This document shows, piece after piece, positions 6,036 to 62,359 of a DNA stretch of 64,000 nucleotides (position 1 is the stretch's first letter; each line of letters starts with the position of its first letter). This DNA is from a virus. Its lineage: Duplodnaviria > Caudoviricetes. The translations under genes were made by a program, and so were the position numbers. Where the stretch lies: the IMG/VR virus record IMGVR_UViG_2974770163_000001, positions 1 through 64,000 of that record; one strand, 5' to 3'. The notes below the pieces were generated by a model. The model did no database searches. It was not told the DNA's origin and worked only from the letters and a program-made list of their open reading frames with translations.

Positions 6036-6037
6036 AT

Positions 6038-6826: not shown

Positions 6827-6865
6827 TCGTTAAGTTACAAATCTTTCACAAGATTACCAACCTTT

Positions 6866-6905: not shown

Positions 6906-6939
6906 GGACAGCACGAAAGTGTAGTGAATGAGAGGAGTA

Positions 6940-9332: not shown

Positions 9333-9341
9333 TGATATAAT
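9313..9341 (+). promoter_or_regulatory. sigma70 early promoter for pol
   Basis: TTGCGG-17-TATAAT. Confidence 0.65.
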
Positions 9342-9404
9342 ATATTTTGTAAGTTGCAGAAGTAATATTTGAAATTATACTTACTTACCTAATAGGAGAA
9401 AACA

Positions 9405-12032
9405 TTGAGTTCACTAAAAATTGCGGTGGTCGATAAATCACCATCTAGAGCTAACTATCAGAAGTCCTTAAATTTATGGGACTATGATGTTGAAGTATTT
9501 CATATGGCTCATGAAAGTTTTACTGGTCGTATGCTTAAGAAGCATATCACAATCGGTACACCAGATAATCCATTTAATCCAGACGACTTTGATTATGTAA
9601 TTCTGGTAGGTGCAGAGCCGTTTAAACAATTCACAGGTAGAACTGGAGTTGTAGATTACACCGGTAAACTAACTGAGGGTCTAGATGGTAAACTAAAATA
9701 TTTAGTTTGTATTAATCCATCTCAAGTACACTTTAAGCCAGAAATGAAACCTGTTCTGGATAAAACTATAACTGACTTTGAACGTATCCTCAATGGTACG
9801 GCTAAGCCACCGAAGCCTGGTAATTATAAGCCAATACAAGATACTGATGAGGCATATGAGTATCTCTGTATGATTCGCTCTATGTTACCTGCTGCTGTAG
9901 TTGCATTTGACTCCGAAACATCGGGTCTATATGCTAGAGATTGTTATGTATTAGGTTTGTCAATCTCACATCAAGAATATCAAGGTGTATACATTGATGC
10001 AGATAATATTGATGAACGTTGTGTTTATGTTCTTCAAGAAATCTTAGATCAGAAAGATCGTCCAATCGTATTCCATAACTTGAAGTTCGATATTCATATG
10101 TATGAGTATCACTTTGGGTTTAATTTTGAAAAAGCATTTGCAGAAGATCGTATGCACGATACAATGCTAATGCACTATGTACTAGACGAACGTCGTGGTA
10201 CTCATGGTTTGAAATCTTTGGCTATGCAATTTACTGATATGGGTGACTATGACTTTGAACTCGATCAGTTCAAGAGTGAGTATTGCAGAGCACATGGTAT
10301 TAAGAAAGAAGATTTCACATATGACTTGATTCCATTCGAGATCATGTGGCCCTATGCTGCCAAAGATACTGATGCTACCATTCGTTTATTCAACTTCTTC
10401 TATCCGAAGATCCAAGCAAACGAAGCGTTTATGCGTTTATACCATGGTCTATTGATGCCTGGTTGTCGATTCTTGCAACGTGTTGAAGATCGTGGCGTAC
10501 CTATCAATAAAGATAGACTAGTAACAGCACAAGAACTACTAACTGATAAACTTAATGGCTTAACTCAAGAGTTGTACTCATTCCCTGAAGTTATGGAGTA
10601 CGAAGCAATCAAGGGGGCTAAATTCAACCCTAACTCCCCAGTTCAGTTACGTGAGTTATTATTTGATGTTCTAGGATTAGAACCTACAGGTAAGTTGACC
10701 GATACAGGTGCTATATCTACAGATGCTGAGTCTCTAGAGAAGATTTCCTCACAACACCCCGTAGCTAAGATCCTACTTAATATTCGTAAGACAACCAAAC
10801 TCTTGTCTACGTACATTGAGAAGCTATTAATCAGTATAGATACTGATGGCTGTGTAAGAACAGGATTTAACTTACACATGACAACATCGGGTCGATTAAG
10901 TTCTTCTGGTAAGTTAAACTTACAACAGTTACCTCGTGATGAGTCTATAATTAAAGCATGTATTACTGCTCCAGTTGGCTATAGGGTAGTTGCACATGAC
11001 TTAACAACTGCTGAGATTTACTATGCTGCCGTGTTATCTGGAGACAGAAACATGCAACAAGTGTTTATTAACATGCAGAATGACCCAGAACGTTATCCTG
11101 ACTTCCACGCCAACATTGCCCACATGGTATTTGGTCTGGATTGTGAACCTAACCAAGTTAAGAATTTGTATCCTGCATTACGCCAGGCTGCTAAAGCGAT
11201 TTCATTCGGTATCTTATATGGGTCAGGTCCAAGCAAGGTTGCCGAGTCTGTTAACATGGCATTGTTAGAGCAATCAATCAAAACTGGCGAACCGTACACA
11301 CCATGTACAAAAGATGATGCATTGGAGTATATTGAAACTTACTTCTCTAGCTTCCCACAATTACGCCGTTGGATTGAAGATTCTCACTCACAAATCGAAC
11401 AGTTCGGTTTCATCTATTCTCACTTTGGTCGTAAACGTCGTTTACCTAACGTGACTTCTGATGATAAAGGTGTTCGTGCCGGTGAAGTTCGTTCAGGATT
11501 TAACGCAATCATTCAGGGTGCGTCTTCTGATTCCCTGTTACTAGGGGCTATCGATGCAGATAACGAGATCGAAAAACTTGGATTATCTGATGAAATGAAA
11601 ATCATTATGCTAGTACACGACTCTGTAGTTGCTATTGTGCGTGAAGATCTTGTTGATCAATATAACGAGTTAATAGTTAGAAACATCCAGACAGACCGTG
11701 GTATTAGTATCAAAGGTTGCCCAATTGGAGTAGGTCAAGACTCTGAGGACGGTGGTTCTGTTGACTACTCTTGTGGTAAGGTTAAAGGTCAACACCCAAT
11801 GATCGCAGTGATTCAGGATGAAGAATATCTAAACAATCTTGTAAAAGAGATTGAAGCTGATATCGATCTTCAATACACTATGCACGTGTTGAAAGATAAA
11901 AAACATGCCGAGTATGACGAGATCAAGGCTGAACGTAAGTTGTTGTCTAAAGTAGCTCTAGACTGTGGAAATATTGAGGTTGAATTAAACTCAATTATTG
12001 AGAGCTTCTGCCCTCAAGTAGCGAGACTGTAG
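9405..12032 (+). CDS. pol: DNA polymerase, family A, with 3'-5' exonuclease
   Basis: Exo FDSETSG/HNLKFD/YAAKD; TTSGRLSS, NLQQLP, RQAAKAISFGILYG, VHDS. TTG start with AGGAG RBS. Confidence 0.97.
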   Translation: MSSLKIAVVDKSPSRANYQKSLNLWDYDVEVFHMAHESFTGRMLKKHITIGTPDNPFNPDDFDYVILVGAEPFKQFTGRTGVVDYTGKLTEGLDGKLKYLVCINPSQVHFKPEMKPVLDKTITDFERILNGTAKPPKPGNYKPIQDTDEAYEYLCMIRSMLPAAVVAFDSETSGLYARDCYVLGLSISHQEYQGVYIDADNIDERCVYVLQEILDQKDRPIVFHNLKFDIHMYEYHFGFNFEKAFAEDRMHDTMLMHYVLDERRGTHGLKSLAMQFTDMGDYDFELDQFKSEYCRAHGIKKEDFTYDLIPFEIMWPYAAKDTDATIRLFNFFYPKIQANEAFMRLYHGLLMPGCRFLQRVEDRGVPINKDRLVTAQELLTDKLNGLTQELYSFPEVMEYEAIKGAKFNPNSPVQLRELLFDVLGLEPTGKLTDTGAISTDAESLEKISSQHPVAKILLNIRKTTKLLSTYIEKLLISIDTDGCVRTGFNLHMTTSGRLSSSGKLNLQQLPRDESIIKACITAPVGYRVVAHDLTTAEIYYAAVLSGDRNMQQVFINMQNDPERYPDFHANIAHMVFGLDCEPNQVKNLYPALRQAAKAISFGILYGSGPSKVAESVNMALLEQSIKTGEPYTPCTKDDALEYIETYFSSFPQLRRWIEDSHSQIEQFGFIYSHFGRKRRLPNVTSDDKGVRAGEVRSGFNAIIQGASSDSLLLGAIDADNEIEKLGLSDEMKIIMLVHDSVVAIVREDLVDQYNELIVRNIQTDRGISIKGCPIGVGQDSEDGGSVDYSCGKVKGQHPMIAVIQDEEYLNNLVKEIEADIDLQYTMHVLKDKKHAEYDEIKAERKLLSKVALDCGNIEVELNSIIESFCPQVARL

Positions 12033-49070: not shown

Positions 49071-49686
49071 CAACTATACTTGTTATAATTATATTCGAGA
49101 TATGTATATCTTCTACAATACTTAGCTAGGATATGTTATGGGAATCTTAGAAATTACAGCCATAGTAGGTTTAGTATATGTGGTTATAGGACTACTTACC
49201 TGGGCAGCTCACAGAGGAGTATACTAGATGATACCAGCTTGGGTATTAGGAGCAGTAATTGGTGGGGTAACAATCAGTATACCGTTAGCCTTATTTGTAG
49301 GAGCATGCTACGATGATTAGTTATCCGTTATTAATAGTTTGTGCAGTAGCTGGATCTATAGTTGGCGCATGTTTGGGCATAACTGGGTATATGCCTTTAA
49401 TTCTACGATTAGCAGGTAAACATGAGGAGAAACATAAAGATGCGGAAGTCTGATGATGGGAAAAGCATAATCTTCACTGAAAGTGAAGCCATGTGGTTCT
49501 TCCTCCTGTTCCCAGGCATATGGTTTACCTTAGTTCTTGGTGGAATAGCAATTCTGTTACCATTCTTTATTTAGACTTAGTGAGGCTTTTATGGACGTAG
49601 TGAAACTTTTAGAGATTGTAGTGGGTTTTGGTGGGATGGCATTAGTCTTCTTACACTATAACGACTTGTGGATCTTTCGTAAGTAG
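49067..49686 (+). CDS. Six consecutive 20-46 aa hydrophobic micro-ORFs
   Basis: 49067-49129, 49138-49227, 49228-49320, 49313-49453, 49440-49574, 49591-49686; each has an SD-like motif or a stop/start overlap. Confidence 0.6.
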
Positions 49687-49702
49687 TAGTGAGACTTTAG
49701 TG

Positions 49703-49876
49703 AGACGCCTAAAGACTCTTTCATCGAAAAATCTTGATGCTTATAGACCATTGAGTGTGGTAGAACCGTTTAGACGCCTAAAGACCTTTCATCGAAAAAT
49801 CCTGATGCCAAGTTCCCATTGAACGTGGTAGAACCGTTTAGACGCCTAAAGACTAATTCATCGAAAAATCCTGATG
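49703..49876 (+). repeat. About 2.5 tandem ~68-bp repeats near the probable terminal-repeat junction
   Basis: AGACGCCTAAAGAC..TTCATCGAAAAATC.TGATG at 49703, 49772 and 49840. Confidence 0.85.
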
Positions 49877-49954
49877 GGTTACGTGTGGGTGTGTGCAATA
49901 GGGGTGGGGGCTTGGGCTAGTCTCCGAACCGCCCCCTATTGTATCACGGTTGCT

Positions 49955-50194
49955 TTAGTTTGTCAACGGTTGCACACTCAAAAGATTTGTAAAGTTTTGT
50001 AAGATAATTCTTAAAGCTAGGTCTTTACTATTTGGGCTACCATCTGACAAAGCACTTGATGCTATATCTATAATGGCATCAGCCGCTACCCGATTAATAA
50101 CTAAGTAACCTTTAGCATTTAATTCTACTACTAATTGATTAAGTTGTTCTTGGCTCATTTCTTTGTTAGGGCTTAATTCGATAACGTTTGACAT
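49955..50194 (-). CDS. Pre-early hypothetical protein
   Basis: GAGGT RBS before MSNVIEL. Confidence 0.65.
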   Translation of the reverse strand: MSNVIELSPNKEMSQEQLNQLVVELNAKGYLVINRVAADAIIDIASSALSDGSPNSKDLALRIILQNFTNLLSVQPLTN

Positions 50195-50290
50195 AATGAC
50201 CTCACACAATTTAAGAATATTGATATTAGCTGGTTAACGTCTAACTAAGTAACTAACTAGGGCTAACCAACTAATAGAGATTATATCAAA

Positions 50291-51007
50291 CTAGGCAGAA
50301 ATAGCAACCAGTTTATTAAACTTACTGCTTAAATAGTCTCTTTCTTCCTGAGTATAACTACACCATGCCGTTTCGATATGTTCCGCTAATGCTTCAGGGT
50401 CGTGTAGTTCTTCCATCACTTGATCAATGAATTGTTCACCAGCCATGCGATAACCAACGTTTAACACGTCATTAACAAGCGTAGCATCTACAACTTGAAA
50501 GCCCATTTCACGAGCAACAGATAACACGCCTTGATGATCATCGTAAACGGTTATAACAGCGTTTGGATACATAGCTTGCAAGATTTCAAAGTATTTCCGC
50601 TTATATTCAGCATCACGGCTATAATAAACGTCTTTGATATCTTCAAGGGCAAAATAACGGGCTAAGGTAGTTCTGCTCATGATACTGGCGGCTTGCGGTT
50701 TATTAGTTGTTAAACCTTGTTTGCGTAGGTAGTAATAATCGGATTTATACATTGTTCTGGCTGTTACTATTACGTTATGAGTATCACCCTTATTGATATT
50801 CTCTTTCATGACAGCCGCTAAGGGTAGCAGTGTATCAGCTTGTACTAGCTCATGAGTACAAGCATTTTGGATATATCCAGTTAAATCTAGGTTGCCCGTT
50901 TCTTCGTCTAGGTATGGTCTAACACGATGAAAGCTATTTATTACAGTGCCATCAAGGTCAAAGATATTAAGAAACTTGATATCATTAAATACTCGTGTTT
51001 GTTGCAT
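50291..51007 (-). CDS. dmp: Deoxyribonucleoside-5'-monophosphatase (HAD family)
   Basis: IFDLDGTVINSFHRV, TAR, YDD; position in the pre-early region. Confidence 0.92.
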   Translation of the reverse strand: MQQTRVFNDIKFLNIFDLDGTVINSFHRVRPYLDEETGNLDLTGYIQNACTHELVQADTLLPLAAVMKENINKGDTHNVIVTARTMYKSDYYYLRKQGLTTNKPQAASIMSRTTLARYFALEDIKDVYYSRDAEYKRKYFEILQAMYPNAVITVYDDHQGVLSVAREMGFQVVDATLVNDVLNVGYRMAGEQFIDQVMEELHDPEALAEHIETAWCSYTQEERDYLSSKFNKLVAISA

Positions 51008-51093
51008 GGTTGTTACCTCTCGCATTTAAGCGGTTTATTTTTGGAGTTCTAAGTATAAAGAAAGCCCCTGAGTATATCAAGGGCTTAACAGTG

Positions 51094-51558
51094 TTATTCT
51101 TCGGTGAACAAAGCAGGCTGAACAGGATTAATAAAAGTTACTTTAATTTTGTAAGGGCTTTCGCTTCTAGCATTAATAGGTGATACTAGCACTTGCCAGC
51201 CAGCTTCTACAAAGTCCGCTAGGTCTGAGAATAAAAAATCACTCTCTGTCATTAATACAATAACTTCGGTTACATTAACCTTAGTCGTATCAATATCAAT
51301 AAAGGAGTAATAATCCTCTAATGATTTTGCAACATTTTCTATATGTTGAGTAGGCAAGCCACCCGTTACACCCTCCGCAATGTTGCCAAAAATACGGGGT
51401 AAAGCCGATTCGATAGCAGCCGCAACGCTTGCCGCTTCTTGGTCGTTGTTGATCAAGCCTTTACCATAACGAATAATTGAGCCGTCAACAATGTTAATAT
51501 TCTCAATAGCCCCGTTGTCAAATGTTTTGCCGTTGCTGTATACAGTGATCATTTTCAT
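51094..51558 (-). CDS. Pre-early hypothetical protein
   Basis: 154 aa ORF. Confidence 0.7.
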   Translation of the reverse strand: MKMITVYSNGKTFDNGAIENINIVDGSIIRYGKGLINNDQEAASVAAAIESALPRIFGNIAEGVTGGLPTQHIENVAKSLEDYYSFIDIDTTKVNVTEVIVLMTESDFLFSDLADFVEAGWQVLVSPINARSESPYKIKVTFINPVQPALFTEE

Positions 51559-51580
51559 GGTTGTTCTCTCTTATTAAGGT

Positions 51581-51781
51581 TTATTCGATTTCGTAGCCAT
51601 CACTATCTAGGATAGTAGAATCTACATTTTCGTTAAGTTGTTCTTGCTCCGCTTCGGTACGGATAGCGGCTTGCTGATCATATGTTAAGGAGTTCCATTC
51701 TTCAACGGATAACCCCGTTTCTACAACGTGGGCAGCCCCTAGCCCATAACCAAAAGTAACATGAATGTTAACAGTTTTCAT
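51581..51781 (-). CDS. Pre-early hypothetical protein
   Basis: Abuts the upstream gene; CAGGA RBS. Confidence 0.65.
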   Translation of the reverse strand: MKTVNIHVTFGYGLGAAHVVETGLSVEEWNSLTYDQQAAIRTEAEQEQLNENVDSTILDSDGYEIE

Positions 51782-52012
51782 TTAATTGTATTCCTGTTTA
51801 ATTCGTGCTATTTGGTGCATTGGGTAAAAGTATTCAGTATCGGGCGTGTCAGTGAAACTCACAAACAAGCCAGCCGTGTCAATATCAACGGTATCGACAT
51901 TCTCAAATACTACCTCTTTTGCATCTTCTTTAAGAAAGCCGTTAGCTTTTAACTTAGACATAACAGCATCAATAAAGATAACCTTAACAACAGTTACATG
52001 TTTCATATTCAT
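51782..52012 (-). CDS. Pre-early hypothetical protein
   Basis: EYFYPMHQIARIK C-terminus; GGAG RBS. Confidence 0.65.
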   Translation of the reverse strand: MNMKHVTVVKVIFIDAVMSKLKANGFLKEDAKEVVFENVDTVDIDTAGLFVSFTDTPDTEYFYPMHQIARIKQEYN

Positions 52013-52068
52013 TGCTCCAATGGTAGCCCCTACACAATATAGGGGCGTTGGGTTTAAATTTAAATTAA

Positions 52069-53832
52069 TTAAGCGCGATACTTGCCATTTGTAATTCTTA
52101 CTAGCTGGCGTTGCCCGTTGTTATAGGTAATCAAGTGCGTTTGAGTCCAGCTAGAAGCCCCGATATTATAGCCCATATCTAATGAGCCAGCAACTCCAGC
52201 AGTGTAACATAAGCCGTTTACGCTTGCACTATGAGTGTGACCAGTATTTAAGCGTCCTAACTTCGCAAACTGTTTTGGATTCCCTCGTGAGCCATTAGCC
52301 CCAACATGACCATGACAGCCCATTTCTACGCCAGCGACCTTGAAAGATTCGTCAACAACTAAGAAGCGTATTTGCTCGGCATTCTCTAGCTTAGCTATCT
52401 TTTTAAGCCCTACTTCTAGCGCATTCCAGCCACTGGCGGATTTATGTTCCGCAATATGGCGATATTTATCAAGGTTCATTTCATGATAGAGAATGGCGTT
52501 AGCAGGATCTAGCCCTATATTAACATCCCATGCTTTCAACCAATTTGCTAGGGCTAAATCGTGGTTTGACTCAACGACAACTATCTCACTAAATGGGCGC
52601 ATGATATCGCGGAAAATGTTAGCCGTATCAATGAGATCTTGTTTAACGCTTTCTTGCCCTAAATAATAACGCTCCGCAATAAAATCATAATCACGTCTAT
52701 TGTGATGATTTCGGCTTGTAAAGTCGTGGCTATCATGACAGATAGTAAACTTAGGCTTTAACAAGTCAATCATCGACGGGTAGCCATGCAAGCCAGCACC
52801 CCATGAACAAGCCGCTACAACATGATCAATCTTTTCTGCATGAAGATCACCGAACTGTAAAGCAGAAACATGATTTTCAGCTCTAAACACTTGATCACTT
52901 GTTACATAAGTATCAAGATCATAAAACGAGCCATCATCATTCATGCATTGTAAATGGCGTATAAATGGCGTGTCGTTATCGTCGAATTCTACTAAGATTG
53001 CACCATAGCAATGCAATGATTCTGCTTTCTGACCAGCTAGGCGCTGAATATAATTTCGATGCGTAACCGTTCCCGTTGTAGTTAACTCTCTAACTAGCTC
53101 ACCTTTTAGAGCAGGAATATTAAACATCTGATACTTGGCAGCAGGTACAACCGCATGATGATTGCCTATAATGCTTTCAATGCCTGTTAATGGGTTAATA
53201 GCAGTAGGGGAAATGCATAAAGCACCTAAGAAAGATACTTTCTTGCTTTCGCCTAGAAACACGTTTTCCTCAACAAAATAAGGGGTTAATTCTGGCGCAT
53301 ACCACAATGAATCATCTTGCGCGGTCGGATTCGCGTAGCCTTTCTTGTTATATGCAAATTTAGAGATGATTAATTCAGCCCCTAAATATTCTGCATACGT
53401 TTCTAAGGATTTCAGGAAAGGCACGTTAACAGACGTGTTATTTTGAGCCGTTGTCAAAATAAATGCCTTGCCTGATTTAACTTGCCATTTTGATTGAGCA
53501 GGTTTGAGCGAGCCACCATATACAGGCAAATCAGGGTTATCAGCTTTACGGGCTTTAGCCTTTGTTACTGGCTTGTTCTCATTCAGCCATACTCTGATAG
53601 CAGCCGTGAATTCTGGTTTAATGACTTGCTCCCCGTCCTCGGTGTCATACGCTAGATTTTCCGCTATAACATCCGCTAAACTAGACAGGGCAAACGCTTC
53701 GTTTGCCGTTTTATCTTTTACGGATTCTAGGCGTTTTCCATAGTAATTAACGCCTTTAGCGCATTCTAGCAGGTCAGCCGCCAGATTTTTATCTGCTAAT
53801 AGGTCTGAAATAGTTTTTAAAATGGGATTCAT
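52069..53832 (-). CDS. A1: A1 protein (host DNA degradation / second-step transfer)
   Basis: FILTTAQNNT, GDLHAE, SNHD.AL, GCHGH.G.NGSRG.P, GHTHS, YN.GASSW. Confidence 0.93.
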   Translation of the reverse strand: MNPILKTISDLLADKNLAADLLECAKGVNYYGKRLESVKDKTANEAFALSSLADVIAENLAYDTEDGEQVIKPEFTAAIRVWLNENKPVTKAKARKADNPDLPVYGGSLKPAQSKWQVKSGKAFILTTAQNNTSVNVPFLKSLETYAEYLGAELIISKFAYNKKGYANPTAQDDSLWYAPELTPYFVEENVFLGESKKVSFLGALCISPTAINPLTGIESIIGNHHAVVPAAKYQMFNIPALKGELVRELTTTGTVTHRNYIQRLAGQKAESLHCYGAILVEFDDNDTPFIRHLQCMNDDGSFYDLDTYVTSDQVFRAENHVSALQFGDLHAEKIDHVVAACSWGAGLHGYPSMIDLLKPKFTICHDSHDFTSRNHHNRRDYDFIAERYYLGQESVKQDLIDTANIFRDIMRPFSEIVVVESNHDLALANWLKAWDVNIGLDPANAILYHEMNLDKYRHIAEHKSASGWNALEVGLKKIAKLENAEQIRFLVVDESFKVAGVEMGCHGHVGANGSRGNPKQFAKLGRLNTGHTHSASVNGLCYTAGVAGSLDMGYNIGASSWTQTHLITYNNGQRQLVRITNGKYRA

Positions 53833-53907
53833 TTATATAGCTCCTAATTAAAGGGTTTTAGTGGTAACGAACTAGCCACCTCCGAAAAGGTGACTAGGGC
53901 GAATCAC

Positions 53908-54372
53908 TTATAAGCGATCGATGCCGTTTTCTTCCATAATGCCCTGTAATACATCATCAGGACATACCTTTTTAACAATCATAATGATTGTATCAAGGTT
54001 GGCTTTTTCAAGACTAGCCCAATCGTCTTTTTCTTGATCGTTGTCGGACATATCACGCTGAAGGGCACGAATCAGAGTGATTTTTTGTAATTTCTTACCG
54101 CCGCCAACTGGCTGCTTTACTTCAAGGGCACGATAAATTTTGTTGCCGTTTTCATCTTTAGAAGATGACAACTTAGTACGGACAGCCGTAGCCGTGTACG
54201 TTTCACCATCACCGCTAATTTGTTCACCGATAGACGCTAGATTATCGACAGCGTTTGCCGCTGTGATTTCCGCATCAGTTGGGGCGGTTGGGTCAGCAAA
54301 TGCCGCTAAATATAAATCGATAGCTTTTGCGGTTACTTCTTCATTCCAGCGTTTTTTAGATGGAGTAGACAT
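53908..54372 (-). CDS. A2: A2 DNA-binding protein (second-step transfer)
   Basis: WNEE.T.KA..LY, AVRTKLSS, VGGG...K, ASLEKANL.T; upstream of A1. Confidence 0.8.
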   Translation of the reverse strand: MSTPSKKRWNEEVTAKAIDLYLAAFADPTAPTDAEITAANAVDNLASIGEQISGDGETYTATAVRTKLSSSKDENGNKIYRALEVKQPVGGGKKLQKITLIRALQRDMSDNDQEKDDWASLEKANLDTIIMIVKKVCPDDVLQGIMEENGIDRL

Positions 54373-54571
54373 AATTTAATACCTCATTTTTCATGGTTTA
54401 AGTTTAAGTTATACACTTCTCATTAGTGTATTATGAATAGAGCCTGTCTGTCAAGCCCTATTAATTACACTATCAAGAGGAGTCTAAGCAATGGCAACTG
54501 CTTAATGAAGCCCTGAATTTCAAGGCTTGTTTAAGCATCCAATCTTAGCTATTTCACCGTGTTTTCCGTAT

Positions 54572-54583
54572 TGTTAAAGAGCG
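54572..54583 (-). promoter_or_regulatory. boxA antitermination element
   Basis: CGCTCTTTAACA, matching the rrn-type boxA consensus, just downstream of a promoter. Confidence 0.7.
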
Positions 54584-54609
54584 TGGTTAGTTGCCTAACC
54601 TTTGAATCT

Positions 54610-54638
54610 ATCTTATATCAGCCGCCTGGTTAAGTCAA
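54610..54638 (-). promoter_or_regulatory. Pre-early promoter
   Basis: TTGACT-17-TAAGAT. Confidence 0.75.
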
Positions 54639-54642
54639 GCGT

Positions 54643-54942
54643 TTATTTCCAAATACTTCTATTAATGCTTTGTTGCGATTCTATCGTTTCTACAACTTGA
54701 ATCACTATACCTAGATTATGCCATGCTTCGCTTGCCTTGTCAAACAGTTTTTTATCACCGTTGAAATACTGATCTAGCGTAGCTTTGTAAGCGTTGCGAA
54801 TTATCTTAGCTTCTTTCTTAAGCCTTGTCAAGTCAATTTTATGATCAATTCGCTCGGTTAACGCTTCGTTTGCTGTTATGCCTTGTGAAGCTACTAAGGT
54901 ACATAACACTTGGTTAAAAGATTGTTTTGCCATGTTTGCCAT
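54643..54942 (-). CDS. Pre-early hypothetical protein
   Basis: GAGG RBS; its own promoter and boxA. Confidence 0.7.
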   Translation of the reverse strand: MANMAKQSFNQVLCTLVASQGITANEALTERIDHKIDLTRLKKEAKIIRNAYKATLDQYFNGDKKLFDKASEAWHNLGIVIQVVETIESQQSINRSIWK

Positions 54943-54980
54943 TCCTCAATAGTTGGGTAGGCGGCTGATATAAGTTAGAT

Positions 54981-55037
54981 TATTAAAGAGCGTGTTTCTA
55001 TGGTTAGTATCTTAAAGCCTAGTAAAGTTTTTGTCAA
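54981..55037 (-). promoter_or_regulatory. Pre-early promoter plus boxA
   Basis: TTGACA-17-TAAGAT (55009-55037), then CGCTCTTTAATA (54981-54992). Confidence 0.75.
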
Positions 55038-55379
55038 TTACTTATTTGAGTATTGCATAACATTTTCAATATATACGATTCTAGCCGCTATATATAAGCA
55101 ACGATAGAATCGTAAAGCTAACTGATCTTTACATATCCCATAGTGAGTGGGCATTTTTGACGCTTCGGGAAATTTTTCTTCTAGGTCTGATAATAAGCGA
55201 ACTAATGAAGCCCATTTAACAGAACCATTATCAAGCCCCTTTTCAAGATCTAACATGATGCAAGTTGCTACCTTATCGATATCATTTCTAACCACTATAG
55301 GAAATGATAATAATTCTAGTATTAACTGTAATGTATCATTGCTTAAAAAGGTTGCTTTAATCTTTCTTACTTTTGCCAT
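55038..55379 (-). CDS. Pre-early hypothetical protein
   Basis: GGAG RBS; 113 aa. Confidence 0.7.
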   Translation of the reverse strand: MAKVRKIKATFLSNDTLQLILELLSFPIVVRNDIDKVATCIMLDLEKGLDNGSVKWASLVRLLSDLEEKFPEASKMPTHYGICKDQLALRFYRCLYIAARIVYIENVMQYSNK

Positions 55380-55428
55380 TTGTACTTACTCCGATAGTAT
55401 ACACTAGGCTTTAAGATACTAACCGTAT

Positions 55429-55555
55429 TTTTAAAGAGCGTTACTACTAGGAACTTATCCAGTCATTCATATGCCACTGGCGGCTACTTCGTGGGCTTTC
55501 CTTGCCTTGTTCCTTACTATGTGGAGTATATTATCACACTGATTAAAGAAAGCAA
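55429..55555 (-). promoter_or_regulatory. Leftward pre-early promoter plus boxA
   Basis: TTGCTT-16-TAATAT with extended TG; CGCTCTTTAAAA at 55429-55440. Confidence 0.6.
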
Positions 55556-55669
55556 CTATTATTTTAGATTATTTTGCTGGCGGTAGGATATAAGGAAACG
55601 GGCGCGTGATTATACACAAGTTAACTAGGAAGTAAAGAAAAACTATTTAGTAAAAGATGCAAAAAGAGC

Positions 55670-55697
55670 TTGCATTTAATAACCGTGGTGCTAATAT
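55670..55697 (+). promoter_or_regulatory. Rightward pre-early promoter
   Basis: TTGCAT-16-TAATAT with extended TG. Confidence 0.65.
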
Positions 55698-55733
55698 GTA
55701 TCACATCGAAAGGCAAACAAAGGAGGGAGCAAA

Positions 55734-56813
55734 ATGACCGTCAAGGCACTTAAAAGCAATCGAGCGATAGCTCGAAGCGGTCACATTAACACAATTGAGC
55801 AATTAAGACAATCAGACGTTGGGGGTTTTCCATCAACTAGTATTGTTAGCCGAGCTACGCCTAGGCAGCTTAATAATATAATGCATACGGCAGGCAATGA
55901 GGAGCAATCTGTATTAACTCCTTTAAGTAGTCAAAGTGCGTATAAACATATTAAAAATTTGCTTGATTTACTTGTTTCCGGTGTGGTAGAATACATTACA
56001 ATCTACTCGCCAGATGGTACGTTAATAAGTGATCACTATTATTCTACACGTCGATCTATGGAGGAGGATTGCGATTCCGCTTACTCTAAGGCTAAGGACG
56101 ATTTACTAATCTTAGCTAGATCTAGTAATGGCATCATGTTAACATGGGGTAGCTATGACGCTAGAAAGTCGGCAGGTGTCGGGGTCAAGGTAGAGTGTGA
56201 GGTTTTCAATCAAAATGATAACCTATTTGACGCTATCTATGATATATTTAACCATGCTAACTATAACGATTTAATTGACGTGGATTTATCCGATAAGCTA
56301 CGCAATCAGGGCGTTATTATACAGGGTCATACAGTTAGCGAGAACAAGTATACACAAGTAATTATAGAGGAATTTTTAAAATCATCTATAAGCGAAGCTG
56401 GCGAAACAGCAGAGCAACCAATCGAAACCAAAGAGGAAACTAGCAAAATGAAAACAACATTCAGCACTATCTTAGCAGAAAACAAAGCAGCAGCAATCAA
56501 CGCTGGCGAGATGGAAACGGGGCGTTTAGTCGTTAATCGTATTGTGGCAGTCGTTAAAAAGCGTGCTCCGCTAATGGTTAAAGGTTACATTGATACACCA
56601 GTAGGGCGCATTGCAGTAGCAAATTTATTTGCCGCTTTAGTGCGAGAATATCTACCTGATAACGCACTGGCAGGACGTGCGGCAGACGGGGCGGTGAAGT
56701 CGGCAGCTTATGAAGTATTGCGCGATATTGATATACCAGCAATTCTGGAAGAAGTATTGGCAGGATTCAAAGAAGCGGAACCAGCACCAGCAGACGAAAA
56801 GATCGCACTGTAA
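55734..56813 (+). CDS. Pre-early hypothetical protein
   Basis: AGGAGG RBS; C-terminal APLMVKGYIDTPVGR..VAN domain recalled from T5-like pre-early proteins. Confidence 0.75.
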   Translation: MTVKALKSNRAIARSGHINTIEQLRQSDVGGFPSTSIVSRATPRQLNNIMHTAGNEEQSVLTPLSSQSAYKHIKNLLDLLVSGVVEYITIYSPDGTLISDHYYSTRRSMEEDCDSAYSKAKDDLLILARSSNGIMLTWGSYDARKSAGVGVKVECEVFNQNDNLFDAIYDIFNHANYNDLIDVDLSDKLRNQGVIIQGHTVSENKYTQVIIEEFLKSSISEAGETAEQPIETKEETSKMKTTFSTILAENKAAAINAGEMETGRLVVNRIVAVVKKRAPLMVKGYIDTPVGRIAVANLFAALVREYLPDNALAGRAADGAVKSAAYEVLRDIDIPAILEEVLAGFKEAEPAPADEKIAL

Positions 56814-56861
56814 CATAAAGGCAGGGGCTAGAACTTAGCCCCTAATTAAAGAGGTGATACA

Positions 56862-57263
56862 ATGGCAAAAGTTATCAATTTTGAGTGTGTACACGTCTTA
56901 AATATCCGTACAACGGGGCAAGCGTTATCGTGGAAAAGCGCACTAGAACAGATTAGTAAGTGTACTAAATGCCAATATGTTACTGTTACATTAGGTCGCT
57001 TGGTTTTCCGTATTGACTGGCTAATACTGGCTAGTATTTACGAATCTTTACAATTAAATATGCCGTTTAGTGTTGCAGTAGGGGGCGAAATCTGGTATAT
57101 TGAACAATATCAGGACGTGGAACAATTGTTTTATAACGTTCCTGTAAGCCGTCTTTTTATGAAAGAGGGAGTAGCTTATTATGTGGGCGATATTATCGGG
57201 CTATGTGGAGAAGTTACTAAGGGTCAAGGGATTACGAATCATAGTACTGCTAATTTTAGCTGA
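56862..57263 (+). CDS. Hypothetical protein
   Basis: GAGGT RBS. Confidence 0.65.
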   Translation: MAKVINFECVHVLNIRTTGQALSWKSALEQISKCTKCQYVTVTLGRLVFRIDWLILASIYESLQLNMPFSVAVGGEIWYIEQYQDVEQLFYNVPVSRLFMKEGVAYYVGDIIGLCGEVTKGQGITNHSTANFS

Positions 57264-57740
57264 GTTATTATATCGTGTTTTCTTTGAATCTAAGTACTAC
57301 TTTTATACGCTCCAATGACCATATTTAAAGTGTTGCTAGTTAGTGGCTGTATATGTATAGTTTGGCATATATTAGCCCACTGGCTAGATAGTAGACGCTT
57401 AAAACGTATGGGTAAAGGCTGATATCTAACCTATAGGGGGTTATAATGTGGGATCTATTTCTATCCCCCAATGGGGATTTAAGCTGGCTTTCTTTGTTGC
57501 TGGCGGCTGTATGCACTATAGCTATTTTAGTGATCTTTGATGATAACGAGCCGTTACTATAGGGTTTTATATGAAGTGTGACAAGGTAGGCGTATATTGC
57601 AACATTCTAGCGGCTGGCATCTTTGGGTTAATGATTTTATCATGTATCTTAAAGTAATTCTTTATATGTTGGCTATTTTATGCCCTGTGTTCGGGGCTTC
57701 AAGCGGCTTAATGTGGTTAATGACTGTATTAGCAGGATAG
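57181..57740 (+). CDS. Cluster of 24-45 aa hydrophobic micro-ORFs
   Basis: 57181-57318, 57315-57422, 57446-57562, 57571-57657, 57666-57740. Confidence 0.45.
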
Positions 57741-58141
57741 CACAAAAAGCTAAAACAATTTAATCTAGATAGGGTAATATTACCCTACCAACACAAAACG
57801 AGGGTTTAAATATGGAAAAATTAAAACTGGCATTCCCTACTGCATTTTCTGAGCTAGTTGAATGCTTTGGGGAAAAGCAAGCTGAAATTGAGCTTGAGAA
57901 GTTAGTCGAGCGTCAAAAGGTTAACCCTAAATTAGATTTAGAAGATAAGCCATTATTAGCCGCTTTTGTGTGGGAAGAAACGGAACAGGGTCATGAGTAC
58001 TGGCGAGAGCTTTTATACTCAAAAGACCTACTATCACCTTTGTTCTATTTCTTGTCCGACTCTAGCCATACAGACGACGAATAGCACGAAAAGCTAAAAC
58101 ATTTAAATTCAGGTAGGGTAATATAGCCCTACCAACACAAA
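57737..58141 (+). repeat. Two ~60-bp direct repeats, each preceding one of two paralogous genes
   Basis: ATAGCAC.AAAAGCTAAAACA...TAGGGTAATAT..CCCTACCAACACAAA at 57737 and 58081. Confidence 0.8.
57812..58084 (+). CDS. Hypothetical protein (AAF.W....QG.EYW motif)
   Basis: GAGGG RBS. Confidence 0.7.
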   Translation: MEKLKLAFPTAFSELVECFGEKQAEIELEKLVERQKVNPKLDLEDKPLLAAFVWEETEQGHEYWRELLYSKDLLSPLFYFLSDSSHTDDE

Positions 58142-58169
58142 TAAACCAATGATTTGAGAGGTAGTAAAA

Positions 58170-58598
58170 ATGACCATTATCCAACGTATGCCTAAATTTG
58201 TTTCTACTATGGTAGCAGTATTTGACGGGGACGCAGACCTTGCAGCGCAGATCATTAACGAGTTAGAAGCGGCAGGAGTAGAATTCGCAGAAAAAGATTG
58301 TGTTAGCTTGGGGGCGGCTTTTGATTGGCAGCAATCCCCGCAAGGTCGGGAGTATTGGGATATGATGGACGATAAAGCGGAGCAGGTACTAGGCGAAGAT
58401 TACCGCTTGCCAGACTTTCAAGAGTGTGGTTGTCCAGCTTGTCAAATGACCGTTAAACTAGGCGGCACAATTGATGCAATCATGGTTGTAGGATCGCTGG
58501 GCTTGCTAGTAGAGGCTATTCCTGAGCCAATGATCAAAGATATGGTAACTCGTGCTAAGGAAGATCGCCTTAAAGAAAGAGCAGGGCGCACGCACTAA
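58170..58598 (+). CDS. Hypothetical protein, paralog of the previous gene with a CxCxxC extension
   Basis: GAGGT RBS; AAFDWQQSPQGREYW. Confidence 0.72.
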   Translation: MTIIQRMPKFVSTMVAVFDGDADLAAQIINELEAAGVEFAEKDCVSLGAAFDWQQSPQGREYWDMMDDKAEQVLGEDYRLPDFQECGCPACQMTVKLGGTIDAIMVVGSLGLLVEAIPEPMIKDMVTRAKEDRLKERAGRTH

Positions 58599-58669
58599 CA
58601 TTAATTTAGTTGCTAAGTTTATGCCCCCTCTATGTATAATAGGGGGCATCAAAAGAAAGGGGGTAGCAA

Positions 58670-58780
58670 ATGATCTTATTTACTTTGTGGGGCGTTATTC
58701 AGTGGGCTACATTGGTTTATATCCTCGTTACCCCGTATGTATTAAATGCCGTAGTAGCCGCACAGTTAGCAGGCGTATAA
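58670..58780 (+). CDS. 36 aa membrane peptide
   Basis: AAGGGGG RBS; MILFTLWGVIQWATLVYILVTPYVLNAVVAAQLAGV. Confidence 0.5.
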   Translation: MILFTLWGVIQWATLVYILVTPYVLNAVVAAQLAGV

Positions 58781-58831
58781 CTTCTAAGGAGGTTATACAC
58801 AAGTTAACCGTAAACAATCGAGGGTATTAAA

Positions 58832-59101
58832 ATGAAATTATCTAAACTGGTATTAGCTACTTTAGTGTTAAGCTTGGCAGGTTGTGCGACTACTGGCGAA
58901 AAACCAGCTATAACCCCTAAAACGTGTATGGGTATCATGGAAGTTTCGACCATGAATCGCACCTACTCAGTGGACTTGAAAGCCGTCAAAACTAACAAGT
59001 ATGGCGAAACGTTCTATCAGGTTAAAGGCTACAATCCATTTGTAGGCGGGGCAGGTTGGGTTCGTGAAGATGCTTTTCAGTCTGTAATATGTAATGAATG
59101 A
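58832..59101 (+). CDS. cor: Cor-like superinfection-exclusion lipoprotein
   Basis: Signal peptide with LAGC lipobox; C...YSV....GY.PF..WV...F....C pattern of Cor proteins. Confidence 0.7.
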   Translation: MKLSKLVLATLVLSLAGCATTGEKPAITPKTCMGIMEVSTMNRTYSVDLKAVKTNKYGETFYQVKGYNPFVGGAGWVREDAFQSVICNE

Positions 59102-59294
59102 GATCATATATATTAAACGCTTTATATCCCTATACTGGCATTTTATAGGGGTAGTCGAAGCGATGCACGAAAAGGCAGTTAGTGAGAATCACCAATACGG
59201 GATTGACCTAACTAGACGTAAACTAGACCGCCTTAAAATTGATCTGCTAGGCTGGCAAGATAAGCTGATGCACGAGATAAAAAATACAAAATAG
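59094..59294 (+). CDS. Hypothetical protein
   Basis: Overlaps the cor stop. Confidence 0.55.
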   Translation: MNEIIYIKRFISLYWHFIGVVEAMHEKAVSENHQYGIDLTRRKLDRLKIDLLGWQDKLMHEIKNTK

Positions 59295-59297
59295 TCA

Positions 59298-59326
59298 TTG
59301 ACACTATAGCCCTTTCGATGTATATT
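59298..59326 (+). promoter_or_regulatory. sigma70 promoter
   Basis: TTGACA-17-TATATT. Confidence 0.7.
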
Positions 59327-59358
59327 ATATGCATACACCAAAACGAGAGGGCTACAAA

Positions 59359-59628
59359 ATGATTATTCGTATTTCTGGCATTAACATAAATAACGATTTA
59401 GATATGTTTGACGCACTGGCGGGCGCAGGTTATGCAGGGGCACTAGATCGCCTAGACGATATAACAGCAGAGTTAGACGTGAGAGATTATGCCTTTAGAC
59501 AACGGGCAGGGATCGAGGAAGCAGATGTATTACAAATGATCAGTGAGCTTACATCATTAGGACTAACTCTAACGATAGTCGGAGAACCTAACACTAGCCT
59601 ATTAGAAGCCGTGATTGCAGGCAACTAA
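59359..59628 (+). CDS. Last pre-early hypothetical protein
   Basis: GAGGG RBS before MIIRISG. Confidence 0.7.
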   Translation: MIIRISGININNDLDMFDALAGAGYAGALDRLDDITAELDVRDYAFRQRAGIEEADVLQMISELTSLGLTLTIVGEPNTSLLEAVIAGN

Positions 59629-59647
59629 CAACCATAACAACCATAAC

Positions 59648-59675
59648 AGCCTTGCAGAAATGCAGGGCTTTTTTA
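59648..59675 (+). terminator. Terminator ending the pre-early operon
   Basis: AGCCTTGCA-GAAA-TGCAGGGCT followed by TTTTT. Confidence 0.85.
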
Positions 59676-59786
59676 TGCCCCTAGCCTCTCAAGCCCCTAT
59701 AAGACTATCCCTATCACAATTAAACCTCTCACAATGGCTTACAGTGCGTTTCATTGGACAACCGCATTATATGCTATCAGAGACTA

Positions 59787-59802
59787 CTGTATAAATAAAC
59801 AG
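59787..59802. promoter_or_regulatory. LexA (SOS) box
   Basis: CTGT-ATAAATAA-ACAG, preceded by TA. Confidence 0.75.
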
Positions 59803-59811
59803 GTTCAAAAC

Positions 59812-59884
59812 TGTGGATAAGTCCTGTGGATAAGTCGAAATGAATCGATTCAGCAAGCCCCCAACTGGTCAGACCTGTGGATAA
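59812..59884. promoter_or_regulatory. Three perfect DnaA boxes
   Basis: TGTGGATAA (=TTATCCACA) at 59812, 59825 and 59876, all in the same orientation. Confidence 0.85.
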
Positions 59885-59920
59885 CTTCTAAATGCAAGTG
59901 AGAAGCATTCGCATTCATTT

Positions 59921-59992
59921 AGCCGTCTAAACGTCTGGACGTCTAAACGTCTAGACGGCTGGACGTCTGGAAGGCTGGACGTCTAGACGTCC
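59921..59992. promoter_or_regulatory. Nine tandem in-phase Met boxes (MetJ operator-like)
   Basis: AGCCGTCT AAACGTCT GGACGTCT AAACGTCT AGACGGCT GGACGTCT GGAAGGCT GGACGTCT AGACGTCC against consensus AGACGTCT. Confidence 0.75.
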
Positions 59993-61091
59993 CTCTGCGC
60001 TTATGTGCATAATCGGGATCGCTTTTTCAAAACGTTACATGCGAGCTAGGCCACATGTGAATTTCTGAAAATGCAAATTCCAAAATTCTCGAAAAAATTT
60101 TTCCATTCGTAAAATATTCTCTCCTGCTCCCTGGCTGTTTCAATTTCCCTATACTATTTACTCTTCCACCAGCAGTTCTCCAGCCTCAAAAATAAAATGC
60201 AAATATAAAACTGAGTGCGTCTTTTCTATGGAACTCCATTTTATTTTTGATTCTCAGGAATGTGATAGCCTTAGTTTATAAATCAGTTTTGAAAACTCCG
60301 AAAATTTTAAATGCCCAGATCTATCCCAGCAATCCAGTCAGCCAGGGAAGAGGAGAAAACCAAAGAAATCACTTGACAACCAGTTTTGCTAAAGTCAATT
60401 AACCAAATTGATCCACCAGCGTTTTATAAACTAGAATATTATTTGCCCTCAGAATTTAGGTGTGAGCAATTCTCCTGTTCCCCTTCCGAATCTATTGATG
60501 CAGAGGATTCTAGGAATGCAAAATATTTATCGCTGCTAATTTGAGTTGTGGGAAACCTTGGGAAGTTGTTTGGTGGATGCTTGGGGATTTGATCAGTTGT
60601 GCCGGGGAACAGGAGAGGATTTTGTGGGATGCTCAGAAAAATCGTTGTTCGCAGAAAAACGCATTTAAAACAACCCCCCTGGTAGCTAACCGCCCTATAT
60701 CGAAAAATTATGACCTTAAAGGTGGGTAAAGGGCTTGAAAAATAAAAAATTCATGAGGCCCCAAGAACTGGATGATTCAACGGTCGGTATAAACAAATCT
60801 CTCCTGTTCCCAGGCTGTTTTAATTAGATATGATGTGAGATGTGGGTAGGATGAACTTTTATTGTCTAGATATGATGTGGCACGTGGGTAGTGTGATGAT
60901 TTATAAGGGTTAGGAAAGTCTAGGAGTGCACAATTTGTGGAGGGAAGTCACGAGAAGCTTATAGATGTGGAAGTTGAAAAAGGGAACAGGAGAAATTTTT
61001 ATCTAGGAATATCTAGGTAAATGAATCTCACACCTAGCAGAATTCCAGGGTATCAAAGGTTCCAGTTCTATTATTATGTTTAGTATAGATA

Positions 61092-61319
61092 ATAAAAAAC
61101 CTCCTTGAGCGGAGGTTTATTGGTTTTATTAAACGAGTGGTTTTTAAAGAATAGAAGATCCCCAAGGATGCATAGCAGTCGCATGAAGCACTTACACGAG
61201 ACTATGTACGTTGTACCGTGATGTAATCTGTCTCTCCTTTGGTTCCGAGCCATATACATCACTTCCTAGTCAAGTAAGTGCTTTGCTGCTGTATTGACGA
61301 TAAATCTTGTTTATCTAAT
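61092..61319 (-). ncRNA. Candidate structured small RNA (~225 nt)
   Basis: Promoter TTGACG-17-TATAAT (61326-61354), nested stems, terminator AAACCTCCGCTCAAGGAGGTTTTTT. Confidence 0.5.
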
Positions 61320-61372
61320 ACAGATATTATAACATCAAAACTTTGTCACGTCAATGAAAAAATTTAATTCCG

Positions 61373-62359
61373 TCAAAGGTCAGTTGCACCGGGTGGAGGG
61401 CAACCGTTGACTCCTATACTTGGACTTAGATCTTTCTTAGGTGGAGTTCTCTTAGGGCTTACAATACGTTTAATCATGAATTGTTTGAATCCATTTAGTC
61501 CCACCGATATTGCTTTTACTGCTGAGTTTGATGAGGGTTTCAAAGACTTAGTTTCTTCTCTGTTAAAGTCTCCTAGTTCCATGCCTAGGTAAGAGAGGTA
61601 AGTCACGAAATCTTCATCAGAGTGCGCAAGAGCTTGCTTCACCCATTCTGGGGCCGGTGCCTTTATATGTGACCACATCGCCAATGTTGATGCGATAAAT
61701 GCTTGGGAAGTATTATGTGCATACTGTCTAGTGTATGGTAACGTTGGCTGATCAATCAGGATTGTATTTCCTTTATATAAAATACTATCTCCTGTTAATG
61801 TACCATTGTATACTACTTCCGGTATATCCTTTTCATCTAGCAGTGAGGTTAGTGGGGGTAATTCTACTACCTGTGTTCCTTCCCAGAACTCTGGTTCATC
61901 GGACATATACCCTACAACCTTACACATGTAGTAACCAGTCTTTTGTGTATGTCTGATTCGGTTGAACTCCTTGAGTTTATCCTTAGACTTAGATTTGTAA
62001 TACCTTAGAGGTTGATACTCTGGCTCAAAGATAGACTTGAACGCCACATCCATTGCAAATCTAGAGTTATGGATTCTTACAGCTGGGAAACTTACCTCTT
62101 TGTCCTCATGAATAAGTAAGTCAAAGTTTGCCACTGTCCTAGCTTCTGATAAGTCGATAGCTCCATGATAGGAGAGGAAGTGTAACGGATAAGCTGATAT
62201 GCTACGTATACACTTTCTATCTGCTGAGGGATAACGCTTGGTAAAGAAGTCCACTAGGCGCAACTCGTACTCGGAAAGCTCGGAGGTCTTCTTACCATTT
62301 AAGTCCATTAAGTCTTGATACGCTTGTTGAACTAGGGTTGGGTTTACTGATGATAACAT
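61373..62359 (-). CDS. Early hypothetical protein (328 aa)
   Basis: CAGGAG RBS; promoter TTGCAG-17-TATAAT at 62460-62488. Confidence 0.8.
   Translation of the reverse strand: MLSSVNPTLVQQAYQDLMDLNGKKTSELSEYELRLVDFFTKRYPSADRKCIRSISAYPLHFLSYHGAIDLSEARTVANFDLLIHEDKEVSFPAVRIHNSRFAMDVAFKSIFEPEYQPLRYYKSKSKDKLKEFNRIRHTQKTGYYMCKVVGYMSDEPEFWEGTQVVELPPLTSLLDEKDIPEVVYNGTLTGDSILYKGNTILIDQPTLPYTRQYAHNTSQAFIASTLAMWSHIKAPAPEWVKQALAHSDEDFVTYLSYLGMELGDFNREETKSLKPSSNSAVKAISVGLNGFKQFMIKRIVSPKRTPPKKDLSPSIGVNGCPPPGATDL

Follow-up and report, generated by a model that had tools for sequence, protein, structure and literature searches.

A gene-free block resembling clustered host regulator operators in the terminal repeat of a T5-like phage of the Priunavirus lineage

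Positions 59785-60058 of the window, by which we mean the whole 64,000-nucleotide stretch analysed here (bases 1-64000 of the 109,434-bp record IMGVR_UViG_2974770163_000001), form a block that is a cluster of sequences matching high-affinity sites of the host proteins LexA, DnaA, Cra, FadR and MetJ. The density of motifs in this block is far above chance. Seven site classes had been listed here by an earlier reading of the sequence (the original prediction), which also expected them to be denser than in shuffled sequence and in the rest of the genome. The site coordinates are all correct, and the scan bore the expectation out: none of 5000 dinucleotide-preserving shuffles of the block held two or more motif classes (22 held one), and among 1606 segments of 272 bp across the genome at least two classes were found only in the six that overlap the block. 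The LexA, DnaA, Cra, FadR and MetJ sites hold, whereas the Fur-like stretch scores at chance and the CRP-like site is doubtful. Motif patterns were calibrated on the genome of Escherichia coli K-12 MG1655, where the same patterns and controls were run. The nearest named relative of the source phage is Providencia phage vB_PreS_PR1 (hereafter PR1; Priunavirus, Demerecviridae), with 96% identity across the upstream genes and 88% across 59645-60100.

Operator-like sites in the block

The block opens with an SOS (LexA) box at 59785-59804, the homologue of ‘palindrome D’ of T5. It has an intact CTGT-N8-ACAG palindrome and an AT-rich spacer and differs from the 20-nt consensus at 4 positions, as would be expected of a LexA operator, and it is the only 20-mer in the 109,434 bp of the genome with five or fewer mismatches. 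Its first 18 of 20 bases are identical to the K-12 box located between istR-2 and tisB. Searching K-12 with the SOS consensus at three or fewer mismatches gave 5 loci, against 0 for a reversed control. Two perfect DnaA boxes follow on the minus strand, an R-type box at 59812-59820 and a second at 59825-59833, 13 bp further on from start to start, and both are unchanged in PR1. A third perfect box (59876-59884, minus strand) aligns with the consensus box of the T5 segment IRC' and carries a change in PR1 at 59881. Three of the five perfect DnaA boxes in the whole genome are thereby found inside the block. A variant of the DnaA consensus, TGTGCATAA, which fits TTWTNCACA, lies at 60004-60012 and is changed in PR1 at 60009; it shares its orientation with the three perfect boxes. 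This variant is situated within a stretch (59996-60020, plus strand) homologous to the unit that comes first among the ‘direct repeat D’ units in T5 relatives, whose start, CTGCGCTTATGTGCA..., is common to DT57C, T5 and EK80 when the sequences are read by eye.

Between the DnaA boxes are a Cra (FruR)-type palindrome and a FadR-type site. The palindrome occupies 59839-59854, and its core TGAATCGATTCA (59841-59852) is an exact match to TGAAWCGWTTCA, the palindrome of Cra operators such as that at fruB. In K-12 this class was found at 3 loci, two of them between fruB and setB, and the control pattern at 0. With the 16-mer Cra consensus, 59839-59854 has 4 mismatches and is tied with 3 other sites of the genome. 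The FadR-type site (59863-59879, plus strand) overlaps the third DnaA box by 4 bp, has 2 mismatches to the consensus 17-mer and is the only match in the genome at four or fewer mismatches. It has the length of a FadR operator and the core CTGGTCnGACCT, the same core that is carried by the fadL site-1 probe (PMC4259882, methods table), and its weight comes only from the near-exact match. K-12 was uninformative for this motif, with 9 matches to the 17-mer at three or fewer mismatches against 8 for the control, and 16 against 22 for the core at one or fewer. The lone exact match to the core in K-12 lies inside ynfO in prophage Qin and was set aside as chance.

The longest component is an array of nine in-phase 8-bp Met boxes at 59921-59992, that is, a predicted MetJ operator array, with 1, 1, 1, 1, 1, 1, 3, 1 and 1 mismatches per box and 11 mismatches in its 72 bases. 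It was recovered also as an 8-bp-period repeat family. MetJ operators of E. coli hold two to five boxes, a number exceeded by the nine in the block. Read from the box list, four 24-mers of the array lie within three mismatches of three consensus boxes, and no K-12 locus matches three tandem consensus boxes at that threshold; two boxes at three or fewer mismatches gave 7 K-12 loci against 19 for the control, which is uninformative. The Met-box consensus is AGACGTCT, and an operator is described as at least two tandem boxes (PMC4239095, introduction), a pattern that the array matches. It does not lie at the promoter of a methionine or S-adenosylmethionine gene, there being no gene within 1.3 kb downstream of it. 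FadR and Cra we take to be present in Providencia. MetJ exists in just those orders to which the hosts of Met-array phages belong, and its presence in Providencia is presumed from the order list of the same paper (PMC4239095).

Two further stretches are weaker. The Fur-like stretch at 59894-59912 has mismatches at 7 of its 19 positions, a score matched at 226 positions in the genome, and as a Fur box it was rejected by score. It is situated where relatives have Fur-box arrays and, by eye, is similar to the terminal parts of the Fur-box repeats in T5, EH4 and EK80. The CRP-like palindrome (60037-60058) agrees with the consensus at 16 of 22 positions, is one of two such sites in the genome, and was reached in 8 of the 5000 shuffles. 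PR1 adds a mismatch at 60052, and by eye the right half of the palindrome lines up with repeat-D units of T5 relatives.

No phage homologue of the MetJ, LexA DNA-binding or FUR Pfam families was found in the genome, and because of this the sites point to host proteins. When the ten pre-early open reading frames were compared with Pfam, only DUF7566 rose above the cut-off and no DNA-binding family was detected. The host operators that the block resembles in sequence are the tisB/istR-2 SOS box, the two fruB sites, fadL site 1 and those of the met regulon; in the block such sites are tiled nearly back to back and are not attached to a gene.

Location in the terminal repeat and comparison with T5

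Comparison with PHROGs located the T5 pre-early set in the window, consisting of a dmp-like gene (50291-51025), A1 (52069-53832) and A2 (53908-54372), all on the minus strand. The terminal repeat of PR1 is annotated as 1-10461, and the block aligns to about 9,490-9,760 of PR1, within that repeat. Transferred to the window by homology, the repeat runs from about 49,890 to about 60,760, and the assembly evidently contains a single collapsed copy of it. The block is found behind the rightward pre-early genes, approximately 0.7-1 kb inside the right edge of the repeat. An intrinsic terminator had been placed ahead of it by the original prediction and is confirmed at 59648-59669 (plus strand, a 9-bp stem followed by a T run), where it closes the rightward pre-early set; all 22 of its bases are identical in PR1, in which a terminator is annotated as well. 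A hairpin at 61097-61118, which scores as terminator-like on both strands, brackets the gene-free region together with this terminator.

The rest of the gene-free region, 60059-61096, is filled with CTCCTGTTCCCAGGC-type repeats in alternating orientation and ends at the hairpin. The repeat search placed these 15-mers at 49503, 60121, 60339, 60472, 60601, 60801 and 60982, one copy lying left of the terminal repeat, and they may correspond, in this lineage, to the ‘direct repeat D’ units of T5. Three tandem 68-bp repeats (49703-49876) adjoin the terminal repeat on the outer side of its left boundary, as located by homology to PR1. Each contains a Met-box-like pair, CGTTTAGACGCCTAAA, with 94% complementarity to 59918-59933 at the start of the Met array.

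In T5 the DNA halts after about 8% has entered, and both the cause and the host factor have been open since the 1960s (Davison 2020, bioRxiv 10.1101/866236). In vivo the stop occurs when no protein is made, whereas in vitro the DNA is ejected completely (section 4.1.1 of the same preprint), and therefore a ready-made host factor is needed. That DnaA boxes and repeats are known from this region is correct: repeats and eight DnaA boxes are set out in the preprint, which proposes membrane-bound DnaA as the agent of the stop and treats palindrome D as a possible restriction site. In its available text DnaA boxes are the only such sites named, IHF and FIS appear in passing, and LexA, MetJ, FadR, Cra, Fur and CRP receive no mention (10.1101/866236). 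A 2023 paper on BF23 mentions repeats and DnaA boxes and states that experimental studies are lacking. We found no literature linking T5 or Demerecviridae to LexA/SOS, Fur-box or MetJ sites, although an earlier mention in older papers is possible. The view that the array had not been described as a system thus stands for the other operators, which are unnamed in the searchable literature, but not for the region and its DnaA boxes, which are published.

The block is probably the Priunavirus-lineage form of T5 ‘Repeat Region 3’, the injection stop signal. Like that region it is gene-free and lies behind pre-early terminators at the inner end of the terminal repeat, in a phage that has dmp, A1 and A2. 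Both have a palindrome (palindrome D) followed by DnaA boxes of the same orientation, repeat arrays and repeat-D-type units, and by eye the two modules share the motif run ...CTGTGGATAACTT.... The source lineage is unlike T5 in having nine Met boxes together with Cra and FadR sites and a decayed remnant of the Fur-type repeats. It is also unlike T5 in having a single SOS/DnaA module, where T5 has an inverted partner. CTGT-N8-ACAG occurs once in the terminal repeat, so that no partner module of the form IRC-spacer-IRD was detected there, and a search of 49400-61400 gave no long inverted repeat of the SOS/DnaA module. ‘Type 4’ relatives of T5 are described as likewise having no inverted partner module (10.1101/866236).

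Conservation in relatives and occurrence in other phages

Against the identical terminator, the flank at 59670-59784 agrees with PR1 at 77 of 117 positions (66%) and the block at 256 of 274 (93%). The SOS box differs from that of PR1 at three positions, each within the N8 spacer, and among the differences listed for PR1 and related contigs the box varies in the spacer only (59794, 59795, 59798). The Cra core likewise changes only at its W position, 59848, among the differences listed for these sequences. The FadR-type site is identical in PR1, and 3 of the 72 bases of the Met array differ. Contigs from public runs were compared as well and agree with this pattern, their differences being complete only for X2 up to 59862. 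Left of 59863 this 108.6-kb contig carries 40 of its 55 substitutions, none of them in the CTGT/ACAG arms or in the first two DnaA boxes. It has a 1-nt deletion in the FadR core, and therefore the FadR site is not universal. All of the relatives having the Cra, FadR and nine-box arrangement are close ones: the Cra-plus-FadR pattern retrieved 0 stretches from the IMG/VR viral contigs, and the pair was found solely in the source record, PR1 and the related contigs. The original prediction had called the block a landing pad for host proteins, and the comparison favours this, since the sites match host operators and are kept while the flank decays, and no phage homologue of MetJ, LexA or Fur was seen; on sequence the landing pad has good support.

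Comparison across Demerecviridae, suggested with the original prediction, showed the SOS and DnaA components at the same place throughout, followed by arrays that vary by lineage. Thirteen stretches were compared (the source record, PR1, T5, DT57C, EH4, Eos, EK80, DU_PP_V, AhSzw-1, VPT02, VCPH, Chester and D411), and the hosts of the relatives include E. coli, Salmonella, Klebsiella, Pectobacterium, Aeromonas and Vibrio. SOS-box-like 20-mers at five or fewer mismatches were located beside DnaA boxes in 13 of 13, and the intact CTGT-N8-ACAG in 12 of 13. Seven of the 13 had been found through similarity that included the motif and are biased in this respect. The other six were found independently of it: T5 was taken by its accession, the Met array led to AhSzw-1 and VPT02, and the A1 protein to DU_PP_V, Chester and D411. 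The motif is present in all six. A composite SOS-plus-DnaA pattern matched 69 stretches in IMG/VR, where by our own arithmetic about one would be expected by chance. These yielded 72 instances, which are not independent because both repeat copies and close relatives are included; 25 of them have a Fur 19-mer at four or fewer mismatches within 800 bp and 5 have chains of at least three Met boxes.

The arrays that follow the SOS and DnaA boxes are of several kinds. In T5 the SOS box coincides with the annotated ‘palindrome D’ (9330-9349), has 1 mismatch to the consensus where the best K-12 loci have 2, and is followed by DnaA boxes and then by four ‘direct repeat C’ units, which match the Fur 19-mer with 3-4 mismatches. 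Fur-type arrays at four or fewer mismatches are found at the equivalent place in T5, DT57C, EH4 and EK80, and contig L088 has one Fur box, read by eye. Met-box arrays follow the DnaA boxes in AhSzw-1 (11 two-box matches), VPT02 and Chester, and in contigs L055, L060, L064 and L094. In Eos and VCPH neither a Fur nor a Met array was detected after the DnaA boxes. Contigs L055 and L060 have both: SOS and DnaA boxes come first, then two Fur-type boxes, about ten Met boxes and finally repeat D, and AhSzw-1 has SOS, DnaA, Fur and Met in the orientation of its record. The source phage follows this order too, except that Cra and FadR sites stand between its DnaA groups and the Fur position is decayed.

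Several other repeats were noted at or near this place. Between the DnaA and Fur-type boxes of L055 and L060 are repeated TTGACGTTTACGTAAA-type palindromes, possibly the site of another host protein. VCPH (L009), a Vibrio phage, has at about 1350-1500 some ten units of GCAACTGTTGC-like palindromes with a period of about 15 bp, in place of Fur or Met arrays, and no matching protein was recognised for them. Contig L044 (116 kb) carries four tandem 42-bp units at about 7440-7600 of the locus, flanked by the DnaA boxes on one side and the repeat-D units on the other; the 42-bp unit resembles no recognised host motif. DU_PP_V (L033), a Pectobacterium phage, contains two SOS-box-like groups about 5 kb apart (802-1067 and 5707-6208) with six 20-mers at five or fewer mismatches, which would fit the inverted partner modules described for T5. 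In contigs L036 (35.7 kb) and L087 (18.6 kb) an SOS box is flanked on both sides by pairs of DnaA boxes; both contigs are far smaller than T5-like genomes and may be fragments or another phage type. One-mismatch Cra-like matches in T5-type contigs were rejected as Cra sites, the one inspected, in L041, being inside a Fur-type repeat unit. The exact Cra site is thus kept in the close relatives and missing from the other lineages searched.

Such repeats bear on whether the motifs serve phage proteins, for instance A2, or DNA structure such as cruciforms and bends, their likeness to operators being without function. A2 is a DNA-binding protein whose specificity is unassigned, the region has classically been described only as repeats and palindromes in the literature available, and the repeat D, CTCCTG-type, VCPH 15-bp-period and L044 42-bp families match no recognised host motif. 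We nevertheless regard this explanation as very unlikely. Five independent motif classes would have to match host consensus sequences by accident, including an SOS box in T5 that is nearer to consensus than the best in K-12, and Met arrays occur only in phages whose host orders bear MetJ. The source genome, moreover, yielded no MetJ, LexA or Fur homologue.

Similar arrays were identified in phages outside the family. Positions 59927-59985 of the Met array (59 bp) have about 80% identity to sequences in 26 records of jumbo phages of Escherichia and Salmonella. In one of these, Escherichia phage vB_Ec-M-J (L004; Asteriusvirus), a run of Met-box-like octamers is located at about 770-920, roughly 0.8 kb from the left end and within the 1.7-kb gene-free start of a 21.5-kb direct terminal repeat. 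The jumbo coliphage arrays are like that of the source phage in being long, in phase at 8 bp and placed in gene-free terminal-repeat DNA, but these phages belong to an unrelated family, the array is near the left end, and no SOS or DnaA boxes were seen in the stretches scanned. Justusliebigvirus phages have intergenic repeat regions that match the Fur-type repeats of T5. One such phage, Escherichia phage alia (L012), has several Fur-type boxes in an annotated intergenic repeat at 1500-1615. Ahead of these boxes is CCCCTGCGCG, similar to the CCCTGCGC with which the arrays of T5 relatives end. Although alia shares Fur-type boxes with the T5 relatives, it too is from an unrelated family and its boxes lie in an intergenic repeat region.

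Two broader searches added little. The A1 protein matched 4 loci outside the family among IMG/VR viral contigs (38-39% identity), and the motifs were present in 0 of the 4; in the phage collection A1 matched 1132 records, and A1-like proteins of 30-40% identity were noted in Flavobacterium, Caulobacter, Rhizobium and Pseudomonas phages outside Demerecviridae. A four-box Met pattern matched 12 stretches in viral contigs, of which, read by eye, 10 are perfect or near-perfect 8-bp microsatellites, L028 has four boxes in GC-rich DNA and only L020 is T5-like, and the pattern was rejected as a census. Perfect 8-bp microsatellites of the forms (GGATGGCT)n, (AAATGTCT)n and (AGATGTCY)n, which fit the loose Met-box pattern, were noted in L018, L019 and L021-L027, all unrelated contigs.

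The block could have a role in replication or in forming the genome ends, its DnaA boxes and the proteins bound beside them marking an origin-like or boundary element that would be used not in injection but in copying the repeat or in the packaging cut. Its distance from the right boundary of the terminal repeat, as placed by homology to PR1, is about 0.7-1 kb, the 68-bp repeats with Met-box-like pairs adjoin the left boundary, the jumbo coliphage array is about 0.8 kb from the left end of its repeat, and oriented DnaA boxes are reminiscent of origins. We judge this quite unlikely. We know of no role for SOS, MetJ, FadR or Cra sites at origins or packaging sites, which counts against such a function, and no AT-rich unwinding element or iterons were identified in the block. 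In T5 the origins are reported near the centre of the genome, and the replication genes are absent from the DNA of the first-step transfer (10.1101/866236, section 3.3.3).

Possible roles of the block

We tentatively favour the possibility, which we put a little short of an even chance, that the block acts as a plug or roadblock, or as a fail-safe barrier or anchor, assembled from proteins that the host already contains, on the portion of the first-step DNA that enters last. Cooperative binding along arrays is a property of MetJ, DnaA and Fur. As the array enters, host proteins present before infection would load onto it and could build a bulky nucleoprotein complex over the end of the first-step DNA, a complex that would regulate no gene; in relatives, Fur would serve the same purpose. 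The barrier would stop RNA polymerase that passes the terminator, and other motors, from hitting or reeling in the DNA in the envelope channel, and the complex may help to hold the paused DNA until A1 and A2 act. Because the regulators answer to different signals, some of the array would stay occupied whatever the state of the host. Site types turn over while their place is fixed, and their proteins respond to unrelated signals; both observations fit a constant need for bound protein better than they fit a fixed logic.

Protein roadblocks to transcription are known from the DnaA/dnaA-box complex that ends asnC transcripts and from LacI, and in T7 genome entry is driven by transcription. The block is comparable in offering sites for tight binders just behind a terminator, with its DnaA boxes in one orientation, and differs in being predicted only. 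A motor reading toward the DNA that has not yet entered could pull that DNA in. Second-step transfer in T5 is, in contrast to entry in T7, not known to be so driven.

A more sweeping proposal is that T5-like phages in general build a cis-acting injection brake from host DNA-binding proteins, with LexA and DnaA everywhere, filaments of Fur or MetJ, and FadR and Cra here. The bound array, rather than a DNA structure or a virion protein, would halt or hold the genome, and release would come from A1/A2 or from loss of the regulators. This we consider rather unlikely. A barrier or anchor is favoured over a brake because proteins on DNA that is already inside the cell cannot alone oppose ejection.

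Several points weigh against the barrier and, in part, against the identification of the block itself. A pure brake or clamp is physically awkward, the sites being already inside when the DNA stops, and the barrier idea for its part is drawn from the position of the block. The injection stop point of this phage is presumed by analogy with T5, and binding is predicted at all of the sites. Of the consensus strings, only the Met box and the FadR probes were taken from cited sources. Compared with PR1, changes affect 9 of 162 site positions (summed) and 9 of 112 bases between sites; the sites are not clearly better kept than the intervening bases, and it is the whole block that is conserved. The FadR core is broken in X2, and the third DnaA box and the repeat-D variant are changed in PR1; therefore individual sites appear dispensable. 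Finally, a promoter-like match (TTTATA-18-TATAAT, 10 of 12 positions) runs on the minus strand from 59795 to 59766, with its -35 element inside the SOS box.

This last match qualifies the original prediction that there is no promoter or gene for the block to regulate: the absence of a gene within 1.3 kb was upheld, while this one minus-strand promoter-like sequence lies over the SOS box. It also speaks for a physiological switch, in which the operators would control an unannotated promoter or small RNA, or in which occupancy would gate the restart of transfer, for example with LexA cleavage after A1-driven breakdown of host DNA ending the pause. The phage would then read DNA damage, S-adenosylmethionine, fatty acids and carbon flux, and every protein named here is indeed responsive to a ligand or to damage. 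However, PR1 alters three of the six -10 bases (59768, 59769 and 59771), promoter-like matches are not enriched in the region (10 against 5.8 +/- 2.5 in shuffles), and no conserved promoter was found there by promoter scan and comparison with PR1. Lineages differ in their site sets but keep the place, a pattern that better suits a general requirement for bound protein; nine Met boxes in tandem are more than repression requires; and Cra, CRP, Fur and MetJ bind under opposing conditions. A switch therefore seems unlikely to us.

A decoy would be a further use of sites without a gene: the array would titrate regulators and de-repress the SOS, met, fad and fru regulons. High-affinity sites of this kind resemble titration loci, and their copy number rises after replication, with two copies per genome. 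The chromosomal cluster of high-affinity boxes at datA titrates DnaA, and like the block it acts by binding protein and not by regulating a neighbouring gene; the block is unlike it in addressing several unrelated regulators and in being present once per cell at entry. A sponge is highly improbable, and the least likely of the three roles (clamp, sensor and decoy) that were first put forward for the block. At the pre-early stage one copy per cell would face hundreds or thousands of regulator molecules. T5-type phages are described as degrading host DNA within minutes, and the source phage encodes A1; with the host DNA degraded this early, the de-repressed regulons would therefore be without template.

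The block names host candidates for the T5 injection pause that can be tested. If the array truly binds LexA, DnaA, MetJ, Fur, FadR and Cra, the question of what stops the DNA would turn into a set of simple experiments for which E. coli mutants and purified proteins exist, and arrays of this kind would be useful as compact binding modules of very high affinity for several regulators at once. In that event a virulent phage would be employing host repressors as building material instead of for regulation, which is rare. Were the wider proposal of an injection brake true, the arrays in the terminal repeats of unrelated large phages would point to a general means by which phages control the entry of their DNA.

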